Source of the DNA: a virus
Lineage: Duplodnaviria > Heunggongvirae > Uroviricota > Caudoviricetes
IMG/VR virus record: IMGVR_UViG_2718218171_000003
Location: 1 to 47,909 of that record
Direction: 5' to 3' (one strand)
DNA: 47,909 nt
The notes under the pieces are model-generated. The model was not told the origin of the DNA and made no database searches. It saw only the letters and a program-made list of their open reading frames with translations. This document shows positions 2,198-37,783 of the stretch, piece after piece. A program made the position numbers and the translations under genes. Numbering within the stretch: the stretch's first letter is position 1; each line of letters begins with the position of its first letter.

Positions 2198-5100
2198 TTA
2201 TCTCGTAAAGCTAGTTTTATGACTTCCTGTTAGCTGACTGTCTTCATAATAAAATGCTCCACTAAACTCCTGTCGACCATAATGATGACTTGATGTGAGT
2301 GAGCCCCCTATAACGCCCTTTTCACCTAATAATGTCCAAACGATTTCAAAACCATTGTCCCTTAACATTGTTAAAAATGGTTCTTTTTTAACAAGTAGAT
2401 GCGGCTTTGAAGCATATACAGCTTCAGCTGCAAAGCAAACCATAGTTCCATTTTCATCATTGAAGCTACCCTCTACTTCCCCACTTTTTAATCCCATCTT
2501 TTCAAAGATTAAGTTACTAGGCTTCAAAAAATTCAAAGTTTCTATTTTTGATTTGTCGAACTCCTCTTCCCACAAATAATTAATCGAAGTGACACTAACA
2601 TCAGCAATCTTAGCTCCAGACTCCCGGTCTGTTACCGAAGTCCAGTCAGATCCACCATAATAATCTGATTTAAAAGACTTAAATGCTTCGGACCAATAGT
2701 ACTCCCTATTAAATAATTGGTATCTATCAGTACATTCCGGCATCCACCTGCCCATAAAGTCTTGAGCTATTGCCCAATATCTAAAATTTTCAAATTCTTC
2801 AACTTTAACGATATAACTTCTGATCTGATACCAAACCTCTTTTCGTGGGTGCCCCCAATCATCGTTTCCAATAATTTTTGGTTCTTTCCATGATGGATAA
2901 CTTTCTAATACTATCCATTCATCACCATTATCATCTTTAACTTCAATAAAAGCATATGAATTAGTTATAGTAGTAGAACTTTTAACCCAGTCTTCATTAG
3001 AGCAAGTCCAATCAAACACTTCATCATTAAGCCACCACATTTCTTTATTGCTTATTTTTTTCGTTCCAGTTTCTTTAAGTAAGATAGTGGGATCTATATC
3101 TCTTACGTAAGGCTCCCATGGCCCTTGGTATGGATTTTCCTTTCGTTCGTCACCATAACCTTCAAAACGAGTAAAATTATCGGCTAGCCTTGCCATGTAT
3201 TCATAATAAGCAATCCATTGGTATTTTTTACCAATCCGTTCTTGGAATGCCTCTCTACGTCCACGTCCAGTTCCTATTTGTTGGTCAAAATTACCATGCT
3301 TCTCCGGATCCCAACCAAGCTCTATAACACGATTGAATATAAATTGTTGAGCTAGTCGAAGATCAAAGTGTTTATCAGTTTCCAGCAGATTATTATTATG
3401 ATCCAGGTATGGCTCTATTTCATTTTCAAACTCACTTAACAGATCGTATGACAATGAATTCTTAAATAATTTCTTGCTCGCCTTTATTTCTTCCTGTGCT
3501 TTTCTACCGACCACACGACCAAATTTAATTCCTTCGCATTTATCATCATAAATGAAAGGATCTGTGGCATCATACAAATCTTTTTGTTGATCAGTTAGTT
3601 TACATTTGAAAGTTTTAAAAACTTGCTTACGGTCAACAGGGGTTTCATTAAACTTGCAACCAGACCAATCAGAATGATTATAATTTGTACCAATAGTATA
3701 TCGTGAAAAGTCACCACCTTCCATAATCGAGCTCCAGAGTTCCCGATAAGGTTCTTTATCATAAAGGGACTCTAGTTCCTCTTTTGAAGGAATCTTGTCA
3801 GGCCAAATGCTGTTGTAGGGTGGTCTAGTCTTGGATAATTCAATGCTTTCAAGTTCCAATCCAAGATGATTAGCAAATTCAATAATCTCTCTAGCATAAT
3901 CTCTAAGTAATATATTTGGATACACATACTCAGAACAAAATACCTTTTGGTAAACAGTTTCGGCTAAATATTTTAGTTCTTTAATATTATCAGTTCGCAA
4001 TGTACAGCCTAATGCAACTGCAAATATTCTTTCCCAAACGTAAGGATCATTTACACCATAAAACTTATCAATTATTTTTCTCAATACAGGAATTCTTGGC
4101 TCGAGTAAACTCACTAAAGCCTTGGTTGAGCAATCTCGAAGTTCTCGGTTACTAGAAGTTAAAAACCAGCATAAACTAGTTGCAACTAGCTCGATTGACT
4201 CATCCGAAACAAAGCTTTTATCTGTTCTGGCCCATGCCCAATCGATTAGATGCCTAAAAGCTGAGTCTTCACTATATTTATATTTAAGTTCTGTAGTCCA
4301 AAACGAATCTCGATTTGCCAAAGAATAATCTTTTAGCCAATCATGCAAGAAATTAGCATTAAAGGGATGGTCAACTAAACCTGAAATAGAGATCACTGCC
4401 TCGAGGAAATGATCAAAACTATCTTTAAATTTAAAAACATGTTCATTGATGAAAGGTCTAATTTTTTCGAAATCAATAGCCTTAATATCTCGCCATATCA
4501 AGCTATCAATAAAGGCTTCTAGTAATTTAAGATTATTGCTAAACTCCGGCAGAAATTCATAAAGCTCTTTTTCATACCTTTCTGGCAATTGAATAGACAG
4601 CGCCTCTACTATTCCCGATTTTATATAAAAATCACATTCATCATGAAAATATTTTTTCAGACGACCATCAGGCTTAAATTCACTTTCGATATTTTCAACA
4701 TCATTTAATAAAAAATTAACAGTTAAATGATCATCAAACCTTTCAAAAGCCACATAAACTACTTCCTCAGTAGAATTATCATCATTTCTCACTATGCCTT
4801 TAGTCAATAATCCTTCGTCAATCAAGGCGCTGAGGAAGGTTTTATCAGCAACATAATCATTAACTACAGATTGAACCACTGAGTGAGCATCTTTAAGTGA
4901 AATACTATTACGACCAATCTCTAATTTGAATTTTATGATTTCATTGAGAGCATCTTTAACAAGAGGAAAACTGGGATCGAATGCATATTTTCTTGGCGAT
5001 GCTAATGATTTATTTACCCCTTCCACTAAAAAGTTAAAAATATTTGAAATCCCATTAAATCCAACAGGCACTTTGGTTAAACCATTTTTCTTAATGCCTT

Positions 5101-34468: not shown

Positions 34469-34755
34469 GCCTTAATTACCCCCTCTTTCAGCCAGATAAC
34501 CTGCGTTCTCGCCATACCTTCCAGCGCGCATTCTTTTGCATATCCAGCGTCAACAAAATGCGTGCGACGGTCGATCTCGTCGTGACAGTCAGAACATGCA
34601 ATGGTGGCAATAAGGTCTGGCGGTTTAATACCGGTACCGCACAATCCAGCCAGCCGGATATGTGCCAGTACTGACGTTTCAGGATTGCCATTACATACGC
34701 CAGGGATTCTTACCTGGCATTCCCGACCACGCGCTGCTTTTCTCAAATCAGCCAT
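34465..34755 (-). CDS. YbcO-like (DUF1364-type) Cys-rich protein
   Basis: 96 aa from [10 protein letters not shown] with AGGAGG RBS; conserved Cys/His pattern [11 protein letters not shown]...CSDCHDEID; position between ninE-like and rusA as in DLP12. Confidence 0.55.
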
Positions 34756-34894
34756 GATTCCTCCTTGCTGCCAGTCGCAACCATTTTTTATCAACCAGGC
34801 TGGCGGTATATCCGAGCAGAGTTGGTATTTCGGATGGCTTCAGCTCAGGTTTACGCTTACGACGATTTGGTACTTTGTAGATGTGTCCGTTCAT
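34748..34894 (-). CDS. ninE: NinE-like small basic protein
   Basis: 48-aa [51 protein letters not shown] resembling lambda NinE; below the ORF-track size cutoff. Confidence 0.5.
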   Translation of the reverse strand: MNGHIYKVPNRRKRKPELKPSEIPTLLGYTASLVDKKWLRLAARRNHG

Positions 34895-34917
34895 GACACG
34901 AATAAGCGGTGTAGCCA

Positions 34918-35373
34918 TTACGCCTCCTGCTTGTCGCGCAGCATCTGGAACTCGCAGCTCTGCGGAATAGTCAGGTGGCAGCCAATATTCATCGCCCAGG
35001 CTTCAACCTTACACAGGAAGACATACATCTCTCCGGTATCGAGATCGGAGGTATGACGTAATGACTGAATGGTGGTGATTTCACCGGTTACGACATCAAC
35101 CAGTTCTTTGGTTTCATAACCGAGATAAGTGTGTTTGAGAGCATCTTTTACCCAAGCTGGAGTGGCGAACGTTTTACCCCTGCTGATGAGGTATTCACTG
35201 ATTTCGCTGTACCACATGTGGCTGAGTGCATTCTGGGAAAGACTGCGTCTCTCGCGCCATGGTTTAAGCACCATGCGAAAGCATTTGCCGTCCTCCAGAT
35301 AAGGCTGGATCTGCTGGCCGATAGCGGTGAAGTTGCCGCGATGTAATTTGATGCCGTCTTGTGGGAGGTTCAC
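34918..35373 (-). CDS. NinB / YbcN-family protein
   Basis: 151-aa ORF (GTG start) with [20 protein letters not shown] resembling the NinB motif RSLDQNRKLW. Confidence 0.6.
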
Positions 35374-35572
35374 GCTTCACCTCCGCAGAGGTCAAACGCA
35401 GGATGCAAAAAATCGCAGGTGCATTTCTGCATCTGTGAAGGGAGAAGAGAGTTTGGATTGTATGTGCGCATAAACGTCCCCGTTTAGCGCAGAAGTCACC
35501 GGAGTTGTTCAGGCTCCGATGACGTGATTATGGCGTGTTGATTATGGGAAATCAAAGTAGATAGTCAAAAAA

Positions 35573-36091
35573 TTACCACAAGTGGCCCTTCGTTTGGAAG
35601 AGTAACATCTGTAAAAGGCCGTTTGCTGCCTTGAAATTCTCATATTGGTCGGTGAAGTGAAATTTCCATTTTTCACCATGGAATAAGTTGTTTCTAAGGC
35701 AGTGCAAAACCTTTAAGCAAAGACTCAACATCTGTTTTTCATCAGGCTTCGGGTTTTCCATCAATTCAATCATTCGAGACTTGGTATCACTCCGAGCGTA
35801 ATCATTTGGAAATAGTACATGAAATCGGTGATTGACCCTTCCTGATTCCAAATATCGTTTAGTATAGTAACTATACACTTTTCTTACTAAATCCTGATCG
35901 ATACTCCCTGAAGTCAAAAGCCAATCGGCAACATTGCCTGTTTTTGCAACACTTGTCCCTTTGTGCGACCATTTACTTTCCCCGAATGCAAATAACAACG
36001 TGAAAAGGTAAATATTATCCCATTCTTCACGCTTTAGATCTCTTCCGCCATCGGTCAAACTTATCAAAACTTCTTCAAATTTTTGTTGCAT
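35573..36091 (-). CDS. HEPN-motif protein (R-N-x3-H near C-terminus); putative RNase-type toxin or abortive-infection moron
   Basis: 172 aa from ATG at 36091 with GAGG RBS; motif LHCLRNNLFHGEKW; AT-rich coding sequence. Confidence 0.45.
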   Translation of the reverse strand: MQQKFEEVLISLTDGGRDLKREEWDNIYLFTLLFAFGESKWSHKGTSVAKTGNVADWLLTSGSIDQDLVRKVYSYYTKRYLESGRVNHRFHVLFPNDYARSDTKSRMIELMENPKPDEKQMLSLCLKVLHCLRNNLFHGEKWKFHFTDQYENFKAANGLLQMLLFQTKGHLW

Positions 36092-36449
36092 GCCCACCTC
36101 AGTTACCCATTAATCTTTGATGATCTGGTTTGCCATTTCCGTATATTGAGAATCACTGGAATGAGGCAATTTCAAACTCTCCCCCCGATAGTGCCGCAAC
36201 CGTTCAAGGAAGTAATTACGCAGTTGCTCGGACTGCTAACGTATCACCACCTCGGCACCAGCATGTTCAGCCGCTTTTTGTACGCTACTCCGTAAGCTGC
36301 AAAGTATAGGTATACATTAACCTTGTGTCATTCTTCCTGCGACTCTGCTGCAACGATTCCAGCAGTTATTGCTGCCCATGCCTATGTCATCAAGTTATCC
36401 CACTCTCGAAACCGCATAATACTAAAAAAACACACGCATTCTGTTTGTC

Positions 36450-36875
36450 TTATTTTTTGCCAATGCGGAACGTAGTTGTATTTTTGCCTTCATTGCGTTG
36501 CAATATGTTAAATTTATTTAAGAGTTTAATCATGCCCGAATTTTTGTTGACTACCACAAACTCAATCAATGGAATTTTACCAAGCAATAGATTCATCACG
36601 TTAAACCCTATCGATTTCCCTTGCATTCTGGGGGCCAAATGTATTTCATGTAAAAAAATGTACACTTCGCGTGGAAAATCAAAACCTAGATTTTTATACT
36701 CAACCTCAACAAACCCAACAATATTTCCATTACTTTTGATAAAATAGACATTATCAATACTCGACAATGAGTATATTTTTGAACTCCACTTGTAATTTTG
36801 CCGATAAGAATTCACAGCATTTATTTTCTGAACATCAGGTAGATTACAATGTGAAAAAGGAACAATGCTTGCCAT
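36450..36875 (-). CDS. GNAT-family N-acetyltransferase
   Basis: 141-aa ORF with acetyl-CoA binding motif HEIHLAPRMQGKSIGFNVMNLLL; AT-rich. Confidence 0.7.
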   Translation of the reverse strand: MASIVPFSHCNLPDVQKINAVNSYRQNYKWSSKIYSLSSIDNVYFIKSNGNIVGFVEVEYKNLGFDFPREVYIFLHEIHLAPRMQGKSIGFNVMNLLLGKIPLIEFVVVNKNSGMIKLLNKFNILQRNEGKNTTTFRIGKK

Positions 36876-36877
36876 TT

Positions 36878-37054
36878 TTACCCTACCATTAAAGAACTTA
36901 CAATGAGTTCATCCGGACCTATAACAATCAGAAAAATCATAACATTTAAGAATAAATTGACGAATAACAAATTAATAGTTCTATTAAATTTGCTACTGCA
37001 AGATGGCATATCACGAACCTGATTGACCAGGTCGCTAATTTCATGATCTTTCAT
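36878..37054 (-). CDS. 58-aa peptide with C-terminal hydrophobic segment, 2 nt upstream of the GNAT gene
   Basis: Translated by hand: MKDHEISDLVNQVRDMPSCSSKFNRTINLLFVNLFLNVMIFLIVIGPDELIVSSLMVG; GAGG RBS; a possible 24-codon ORF with AGGAG RBS precedes it; below the ORF-track cutoff. Confidence 0.35.
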   Translation of the reverse strand: MKDHEISDLVNQVRDMPSCSSKFNRTINLLFVNLFLNVMIFLIVIGPDELIVSSLMVG

Positions 37055-37250
37055 GACTTACCTCTGTGGTGTATGGCGGCGCGGCAGGAGTTCCATCCGT
37101 AAATGAATGAGTTCAATGGTGACATGACTACGCTCCTTTTAATAAGTAAGTCATATGCCTAGCATGCAGTCATTTTATGTGGCACTACCAGCACTGGCTT
37201 CGCACTAAACGTGGAAATTGCCTCATTAATAACCTTCACAGCATCAGCCA

Positions 37251-37496
37251 TTACGTAGTATAGATTACCGCCGTTACGTTGTACTGCTGCTTTGTTGAGT
37301 ATTTCGCGCATCCTGCTTCCAGGTTATCGATGGTGATATCAGCCTGTCGGCCGTAGCGCTCGCCCCCTTTACGACCTGCCATCCACGCTTCAAACATGTG
37401 CTGCGTTTTCTCAACAGAAAATTCTCCGTCGTCGTTAACCTCTGGCCCCACGCCATTGTTGCCTTTGGTAAACCACTCAATGAATTGCTCTTTCAT
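37251..37496 (-). CDS. Hypothetical 81-aa protein downstream of ren
   Basis: ATG overlapping the ren stop (ATGA); no recognisable motif. Confidence 0.45.
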   Translation of the reverse strand: MKEQFIEWFTKGNNGVGPEVNDDGEFSVEKTQHMFEAWMAGRKGGERYGRQADITIDNLEAGCAKYSTKQQYNVTAVIYTT

Positions 37497-37783
37497 GCAC
37501 TCACCCCGTAAACGCTCAACACCCGCTTCATCGCGGCACTCTGGCGACACTCCTTGAAAATCAGATTCGTGCTCACCTTTCCTTCCCGTTCTTCCCTGGT
37601 AGCGAACCGGTAATACACCGTTCGCCAGACCTTACCATCAATGACTAAGATTCCTGTCCGCGCCATTTTAGCCGCAGCCTGATTTATGCTGGTTACTGTT
37701 GCGCCTGTTACCGCAGCAACGTCCTGCGCACAGAAGCTCTTATGCGTCCCCAGGTAATGAATAATTGCTTCTTTTCCCGTCAT
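37493..37783 (-). CDS. ren: Ren protein
   Basis: 96-aa ORF MTGKEAIIHYLGTHKSFCAQDVAAVTGATVTSINQAAAKMAR... matching lambda Ren. Confidence 0.85.
   Translation of the reverse strand: MTGKEAIIHYLGTHKSFCAQDVAAVTGATVTSINQAAAKMARTGILVIDGKVWRTVYYRFATREEREGKVSTNLIFKECRQSAAMKRVLSVYGVSA

Follow-up and report, generated by a model that had tools for sequence, protein, structure and literature searches.

A variable accessory-gene slot in a lambdoid early-right operon

We analyzed a Caudoviricetes record of 47,909 nucleotides (nt), IMGVR_UViG_2718218171_000003 (the window, in which all coordinates are given unless another locus is named), and specifically the region of its lambdoid early-right operon between ren and orf33/ybcN, where every feature lies on the minus strand. 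Its most interesting element is a gene for a 172-amino-acid (aa) protein, a candidate for a new family of solo HEPN-like defense nucleases at a lambdoid hot spot. The same region carries a gene for a 141-aa GNAT acetyltransferase and, between the two genes, the remnant of a third gene (Table 1). An earlier note on this DNA, made from the sequence alone, had described minus-strand open reading frames (ORFs) of 172, 141, and 58 aa and a possible ORF of 24 codons, placed between the nin genes and ren. All four ORFs are present as described, and the region does lie between ren and orf33/ybcN, with limits that we have now refined; taken as a whole, that description is partly confirmed.

The two long genes are rich in A and T, as the earlier note had also observed: their G+C fraction falls to 0.32 to 0.39 (within a low-G+C zone of ~35550 to 37200) versus 0.48 to 0.55 in the flanks, while the segment between them reaches 0.44 to 0.47. 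The flanks are 96 to 97% identical to those of the related E. coli prophages of strains IrN (L097) and OkiPb01685 (L098), with homology ending at 35556–35560 and returning at 37510–37517. In IrN, the same slot is filled by two hypothetical genes, and in OkiPb01685 it contains genes for an AAA ATPase and an RloB-family protein (L098 1957–3939). In E. coli IAI1 (L158, 839–2330), the slot holds a DUF4145 protein gene, a pseudogene for the theta subunit of DNA polymerase III, and a gene for a 160-aa HEPN-like relative of the 172-aa protein. Because related prophages carry different cargo between conserved flanks, we regard the region as a recombinational cargo slot; it is a slot of a known kind in a phage-82/lambda-like E. 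coli prophage and, judged by what L098 and L158 contain, looks like a hot spot for defense genes. Across 5,426 complete E. coli genomes and 50,697 phage records, no near-identical DNA was found for the slot itself; the search at near identity matched phages and E. coli genomes only over the orf33-proximal 160 bp.

Table 1. Positions of the slot and the features in and beside it
Feature	Position	Strand	Basis or remark
Putative promoter for the conserved module orf33-ybcN-ninE-ybcO-rusA-ylcG-Q, located at the downstream slot boundary	35541..35568	-	TTGACT-16-CATAAT match
Variable accessory-gene slot between ren and orf33/ybcN, lambdoid early-right operon	35561..37509	-	Flank homology breaks
172-aa solo HEPN-like protein (identical to E. 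coli WP_073461918.1/APJ72919.1, "hypothetical protein")	35573..36091	-	ORF, homologues, dN/dS
Codons for R133-N-N-L-F-H138, candidate HEPN Rx4H catalytic motif	35678..35695	-	Alignment conservation
Pseudogene of DNA polymerase III theta (HolE/HOT-like, PF06440)	~36113..36354	-	tblastn and DNA alignment A3
Sigma-70-like match ATGACA-17-TATACT, inside the theta pseudogene and ~210 nt upstream of the 172-aa gene	36303..36331	-	Consensus scan, 10/12; predicted
141-aa orphan GNAT N-acetyltransferase (identical to E. coli WP_073461919.1, GNAT family N-acetyltransferase)	36450..36875	-	Pfam, homologues, dN/dS
58-aa hydrophobic ORF	36878..37054	-	ORF present; stop 2 nt before the GNAT ATG
24-codon ORF with AAGGAG 7 nt upstream	37051..37125	-	ORF present; unsupported as a gene

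The 172-aa protein belongs to a widespread family with a near-invariant motif

Since both long ORFs have homologues elsewhere and low pairwise ratios of nonsynonymous to synonymous substitution rates (dN/dS), they are real genes, and both are under purifying selection. Specifically, dN/dS ranged from 0.04 to 0.20 for the 172-aa gene, compared among prophage homologues, and from 0.28 to 0.50 for the GNAT gene. The ATG of the 172-aa gene is preceded by GAGGTG, and an alternative GTG start at 36097 falls inside this Shine-Dalgarno sequence.

A word-indexed search returned five close clusters from prophages of E. coli, Klebsiella variicola, and Citrobacter youngae, and a full profile search with a threshold of E ≤ 1e-3 collected 691 representatives, most of which are stand-alone proteins 160 to 180 aa long. 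The family comprises at least 691 clusters at 50% identity and is found in Proteobacteria, Bacteroidota, and other phyla. Scans of Pfam, NCBIfam, and PADLOC gave no family for the 172-aa protein, while among PHROGs it matches phrog_27260 (function not named) at E = 1.7e-12. Run on all three proteins, these scans gave one other result, a weak GNAT match. Alleles in prophages are 24 to 82% identical to that of the window, and prophage copies always occupy one slot, upstream of orf33/ybcN or DUF1367. The member in E. coli IAI1 (WP_000622057.1) adjoins the DUF4145 protein, a domain that we take to be HEPN-related.

The earlier note had proposed an HEPN ribonuclease (RNase) on the basis of LRNNLFHGEK, which is indeed present and corresponds to residues 132 to 141. 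An Rx4H pattern in one protein of 172 aa is not significant alone (by our estimate, ~0.2 occurrences are expected by chance), and its significance here comes from conservation across an alignment of 123 members (A4), which, outside the close group, are 21 to 36% identical to the query. In this alignment, R133 and G139 are present in all 123 members, H138 and K141 in 122 each, N135 in 121, and N134 in 117 (with H in five others), giving the family consensus R-N-N-x-x-H-G-x-K. Outside the motif, F30, E38, and R79 are likewise invariant, and Q149 and N152, like N134, N135, H138, and K141, occur in ≥95% of members. Catalytic HEPN domains are recognized by a conserved Rx4-6H, usually with a polar residue (N, H, or D) after the R, and R133-N134…H138 has this arrangement.

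AlphaFold2, run with the A4 alignment, predicted an all-helical protein (predicted local distance difference test score 93, predicted template modeling score 0.89), in which the helix spanning residues 118 to 136 ends at L136 and the motif lies at its C-terminal end and in the loop 137–139 (F137-H138-G139). The Rx4-6H of HEPN domains has been located at the end of core helix 3 and the start of the loop to helix 4 (Anantharaman et al. 2013; PMC3710099), so the position of the motif in our model agrees with that of an HEPN domain. Two weak pointers go in the same direction: a match to the Cas13a HEPN-1 region of NCBIfam (E = 0.023; 12.7 bits versus a cut-off of 150) and a match of 1 of the 123 members to HEPN_RiboL-PSP (E = 0.004). 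When PDB sequences were searched with profiles of the 5- and 123-member alignments, no HEPN protein matched, and comparison of the family by hhalign revealed no relation to the 216-aa protein that replaces the family member downstream of theta in L014 or to an RNxxxH-containing neighbor in L031.

Distant relatives lie in defense islands and share no single partner

We surveyed the immediate neighbors of 79 distant family loci in diverse bacteria, with 57 loci on viral contigs treated separately. No single partner is shared by the 79 loci. Their neighbors include Ppl-like PHP/ATPase proteins, whose genes in several cases overlap the beginning of the family gene, MUG113/T5orf172 proteins, Lit-like Peptidase_U49, a PDC-S35 TIR protein, GajA, HamA, type I restriction subunits, and PD-T7-1, a set that is a defense-island signature.

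An MNT nucleotidyltransferase gene is absent from the window, and none recurs beside the 79 relatives. In this, the family differs from the type II modules of the HEPN-MNT (HepT/MntA) kind (SO_3166; PDB 5yep, 7ae2, and 8xdj), in which such a gene is adjacent. The 172-aa protein is also longer than HEPN-MNT toxins (~130 aa), has extra N-terminal helices, and gave no profile match.

Two arrangements recurred among the distant loci. In the alphaproteobacterial loci L026 (397–3378), L029 (960–3941), and L033 (990–3971), a 993-aa PHP/ATPase gene, whose product matches PADLOC Ppl models and AAA_21/SMC_N, is followed by the HEPN-like gene, which overlaps its stop codon (a -3-nt gap for L026 and L029); this pair may represent a Ppl variant made up of two genes. 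In gamma- and betaproteobacteria (L028, L038, L039, L040, and L046, at ~2500–3950), genes for a 307-aa Peptidase_U49 and a 167-aa MUG113/T5orf172 protein precede the HEPN-like gene in that order.

The segment between the two genes is a decayed theta gene

The 350-bp gap between the GNAT and 172-aa genes had been described as non-coding in all frames, which proved to be a misreading. In a tblastn search with the intact 85-aa theta of L010, the homology was split over two frames, with one segment in each (E = 9e-25 and 7e-10) and a stop codon within either segment; the remnant as a whole carries two in-frame stops and one frameshift. Since stops interrupt the homology in both frames, the segment is a pseudogene. 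It aligns with theta homologues (phage P1 HOT and E. coli HolE; PF06440) over nearly the whole length of these homologues but, unlike them, encodes no functional theta because of these lesions. The counterpart of this gene in E. coli IAI1 is labeled a pseudogene in RefSeq ("DNA polymerase III subunit theta, internal stop"), and theta remnants lie upstream of family members in K. variicola (L005) and C. youngae (L006 and L007) as well. In a divergent phage (L107, 2676–2966), a theta-like ORF with in-frame repeat expansions, VDVDVDVDVDVDVDV and AYSMAYSMAY, lies between the GNAT and HEPN-like genes.

This association raises the question of whether theta and the HEPN-like protein form a two-gene module, in which theta would modulate the nuclease in the manner of an antitoxin or tie it to replication. 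All five close lineages and 34 of the 57 viral-contig loci have theta-like DNA directly upstream of the family gene, even where the HEPN-like proteins are only 24 to 33% identical, and the theta and HEPN-like frames of E. coli IAI1 overlap. In the opposite direction, the window has a broken theta gene, and 25 of the 34 linked loci have one that is partial or disrupted, whereas the HEPN-like gene is intact and constrained. When the best 80 of 563 theta loci were examined, a family member followed theta in only 2; NinB (19), DUF1367 (14), YbcN (9), or DinI (6) comes directly after theta in at least 48 of the 80. Theta is also not among the top 25 of the 77 Pfam families that recur as neighbors at the 79 non-enterobacterial loci, a survey that included no dedicated theta search. 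On the strength of the 2 in 80, theta appears not to be a specific partner but rather the usual left flank of the insertion point; we mostly reject it as a functional partner and consider the two-gene module improbable.

The GNAT is genuine but orphan

The GNAT assignment made in the earlier note, which rested on the motif RMQGKSIGFNV, withstood closer inspection. The motif is present, the protein scores above the gathering cut-off of Pfam Acetyltransf_1 (22.4 bits versus 20.7), and six of six family members match this family (best E = 2.2e-6). The acetyl-CoA motif reads Q-G-K-S-I-G, in which the first G of the Q/R-x-x-G-x-G/A consensus is replaced by an invariant S. The best solved relative in the PDB profile search is a generic archaeal GNAT, PH1933 (PDB 1wwz; Acetyltransf_1; E = 1.3e-3), which shares the acetyl-CoA-binding beta4-alpha3 region (QGKSIG here versus QGKGIG). 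Compared with generic GNATs, the 141-aa protein is shorter than most, has the invariant serine, and falls in a clade for which even a profile query found only nine clusters among 5.8 billion proteins. Every lineage of this clade examined for context is an enterobacterial lambdoid prophage carrying the gene between the replication and nin genes; the clade is very small and, as far as examined, confined to such prophages. A tblastn search of the phage records with the GNAT gave no match.

GNAT toxins are established, and the earlier note had accordingly placed this GNAT in a toxin-antitoxin or abortive-infection frame. We weighed the corresponding possibility that it is a type II toxin acetylating aminoacyl-tRNA, like TacT or AtaT, with the 58-aa peptide, whose stop lies immediately before its start, as the antitoxin. 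This frame found no support. No TacT, AtaT, KacT, or ItaT chain was among the PDB matches of the family profile at E ≤ 10, NCBIfam and PADLOC gave no match to the GNAT, and no antitoxin gene of the ribbon-helix-helix (RHH)/DUF1778 type was found upstream of it. The 58-aa peptide is hydrophobic and lacks the RHH DNA-binding fold, and its reading frame is neither conserved nor annotated by NCBI (see below). Nothing we found in the sequence marks the GNAT as a toxin, and we consider such a pair extremely unlikely.

The earlier note had also described the 58-aa ORF as a peptide coupled to the GNAT, which comparison with relatives does not bear out. The DNA upstream of the GNAT gene is conserved in four relatives (L011, L014, L015, and L016), with frame-breaking insertions or deletions of 1, 10, and 33 nt. 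ORFs at this position in the relatives use other frames or switch frame, those of L011 and L015 have TTG starts, and the frame of the window agrees with that of L016 at its start only. The 58-aa ORF itself is a deletion product, in which a conserved mini-ORF beginning MKD (19 aa in L011 and L015, with a strong Shine-Dalgarno sequence) is fused to downstream T-rich sequence. It forms a cluster of one and is called only by automated Logan/ENA predictions. The hydrophobicity encoded in several frames follows from the T-rich DNA, and the idea that a conserved small membrane peptide precedes the GNAT was rejected because the frame is inconsistent among relatives. As for the 24-codon ORF, the ORF and its AAGGAG are present as described, but relatives with the GNAT gene do not conserve the region of its start: only the 3′ end aligns there, and in L011 it is read in another frame. 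Both small ORFs are, most likely, not genes. A strong Shine-Dalgarno sequence (GGAGG/AGAGG) followed by ATG-AAA-GAT (MKD…) is conserved at 37046–37062 on the minus strand and at ~4770–4830 in L011 and L015; this element, which opens the 58-aa ORF in the window, may encode a leader peptide or regulate the GNAT cassette.

The GNAT and HEPN-like genes mostly occur apart

Whether the genes of the slot form one system, two, or none had been left undecided in the earlier note. The comparative data indicate that the slot holds two separable cargo genes, which mostly occur apart, together with one gene remnant. The HEPN-like gene is absent from four of the seven GNAT lineages examined for context (L011, L014, L015, and L016). 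Conversely, the GNAT gene is absent from the lineages L005, L006/L007, and L010, which carry the HEPN-like gene, and from 56 of the 57 viral-contig loci of the family. Judging by these distributions, neither gene appears to require a functional link with the other. The DNA points the same way, with two shared blocks that meet in the theta remnant: one shared with L014 comprises the GNAT gene and part of theta (36201–36895; 76% identity), and one shared with L010 comprises theta, the HEPN-like gene, and ybcN (34750–36351; 80%). Their boundaries, at 36201 and 36351, suggest recombination within theta.

A single-system explanation would have the GNAT silence the nuclease, comparable to the adenylylation of HepT by MntA, or both proteins act on tRNA. 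It draws on the order GNAT, theta, HEPN-like gene, which recurs in one divergent phage (L107; GNAT 66% and HEPN-like protein 80% identical to those of the window). Set against the separate occurrence of the two genes, the pseudogene that lies between them, and the block boundaries within that pseudogene, this explanation is, in our judgment, quite improbable.

Flanking genes and transcription signals

Upstream of the cargo genes are those for a cI-like repressor, YdaS/YdaT, O, P, and Ren, together with an ORF of 81 aa; downstream are orf33 and the genes for YbcN (NinB-like, 151 aa), NinE, YbcO, RusA, YlcG, and Q. The 81-aa ORF after ren (37251–37496 on the minus strand; WP_073461920.1, hypothetical) is itself within the variable slot; it forms a single-member cluster, has no Pfam family, and matches PHROGs weakly.

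A consensus scan found 8 promoter-like sites in the region, compared with 5.5 ± 2.4 expected from shuffled sequence, i.e., no enrichment. The putative promoter of the orf33 module (Table 1) comes directly after the stop codon of the 172-aa gene; in phage 82 (X92588), the annotation of the corresponding segment upstream of orf33 shows putative -35/-10 signals, a "possible regulator-binding site," and an inverted repeat. Folding revealed no convincing terminator hairpins around either of the two genes. A terminator-like hairpin with a T-run is present at 35414–35431 on the minus strand, inside the 33-aa orf33 frame (-12.7 kcal/mol for the folded segment 35400–35440). Compared with a classical moron, the term used in the earlier note, the region is deviant in base composition, has promoter matches at the level of consensus only, and lacks convincing terminators. 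No tandem or direct repeats resembling a type III antitoxin array (ToxIN/AbiQ-like) were found beyond chance matches, and an Rfam scan of the region gave nothing above threshold, with one sub-threshold chance match inside the GNAT gene.

A candidate solo HEPN-like defense nuclease

The explanation that we favor, with slightly better than even confidence, is that the slot carries a solo HEPN-like defense RNase, a separate orphan GNAT, and a decayed theta gene. Several results weigh against it. No HEPN profile in Pfam or NCBIfam scored above threshold for the 172-aa protein or for its close or distant relatives, a Foldseek search of the PDB gave nothing at E < 2, and hhalign detected no relation between the family and a DUF4145 protein. 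The A4 alignment was collected with a profile that gives weight to the motif, so that the conservation of the motif is partly ascertained. Finally, the genes sit in the lytic early operon, where we detected no strong promoter or terminator that belongs to them, while a defense role needs expression in the lysogen. The proposal of an HEPN protein has thus gained a near-invariant motif at the expected helix end and has not gained a match to a curated HEPN profile in hidden Markov model searches; taking sequence and model together, we regard membership in the HEPN superfamily as probable, not established.

Some of these results would also fit a helical protein that is not a nuclease but serves the early program of the phage (host takeover, anti-defense, or nucleic-acid binding), in which the R/H motif would serve binding. 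The 172-aa gene is co-directional with its surroundings within the pR early operon and without clear signals of its own, and the HEPN fold matches are weak and mixed with unrelated helical bundles. Such a role accords less well with R133, N134, N135, H138, K141, E38, and R79 being invariant or nearly so at 21 to 36% identity, a pattern typical of an active site. It accords less well, too, with the chromosomal, non-phage family members beside defense genes and with the R-N-x-x-x-H form and helix-end position typical of catalytic HEPN domains. We consider a non-nuclease role unlikely.

The closest analogy for a solo HEPN-like defense RNase is HepS of the Salmonella prophage Gifsy-1, a solo HEPN abortive-infection anticodon nuclease (PDB 9OIJ/9OIK; PMC13043305). 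Encoded in a lambdoid prophage accessory region without a partner gene, HepS does no harm until activated by a phage tail-tip protein, whereupon it cuts tRNA anticodon loops (PMC13043305). The 172-aa protein resembles it in being a small single HEPN-type protein with an Rx4H motif, encoded in a slot between the replication genes and late regulators with no partner or inhibitor gene. Like a stand-alone gene of the HepS type, the 172-aa gene has neighbors that vary by lineage, theta being only a flank. The motif differs in position (residues 133–138 versus 100–105 in HepS), and we found no ORF with R100-x4-H105 in the LT2 Gifsy-1 record. Since no sequence or fold match of the 172-aa protein to HepS (9OIJ) was found, the likeness is an analogy of kind and not one of membership. 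A second single-protein HEPN nuclease, Tha of Staphylococcus aureus prophages, reportedly acts like HepS in defending the lysogen while sparing its own phage.

By analogy with HepS and Tha, the 172-aa protein would be a metal-independent endoribonuclease whose R133/H138 site is completed when the protein self-associates, as other HEPN enzymes do. Until triggered by an infecting phage, it would remain inactive, and it would then cut tRNA or mRNA, serving the prophage as a single-protein abortive-infection or exclusion effector with no antitoxin partner. Recombination at the conserved flanks would swap such accessory genes into and out of the slot, and the decayed theta would be no more than the flank of the insertion point. 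Family members in prophages hold one fixed hot spot, between theta and orf33-ybcN/DUF1367, and the presence of such highly divergent alleles at a fixed position would suggest diversifying selection for different phage triggers. More broadly, the protein may belong to an undescribed and widespread family of self-contained HEPN-like sensor-effector RNases, a single-gene anti-phage defense absent from PADLOC and Pfam, a proposal that we put forward tentatively and hold at somewhat less than even confidence.

For the locus itself, these results replace a three-gene unit resembling a toxin-antitoxin system with a mosaic of separately shuffled cargo and a pseudogene. If our reading of the 172-aa protein is true, a further unclassified family would extend the HepS/Tha-type repertoire of prophages and reach into the defense islands of many phyla, and the window would offer a tractable E. 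coli example of it.

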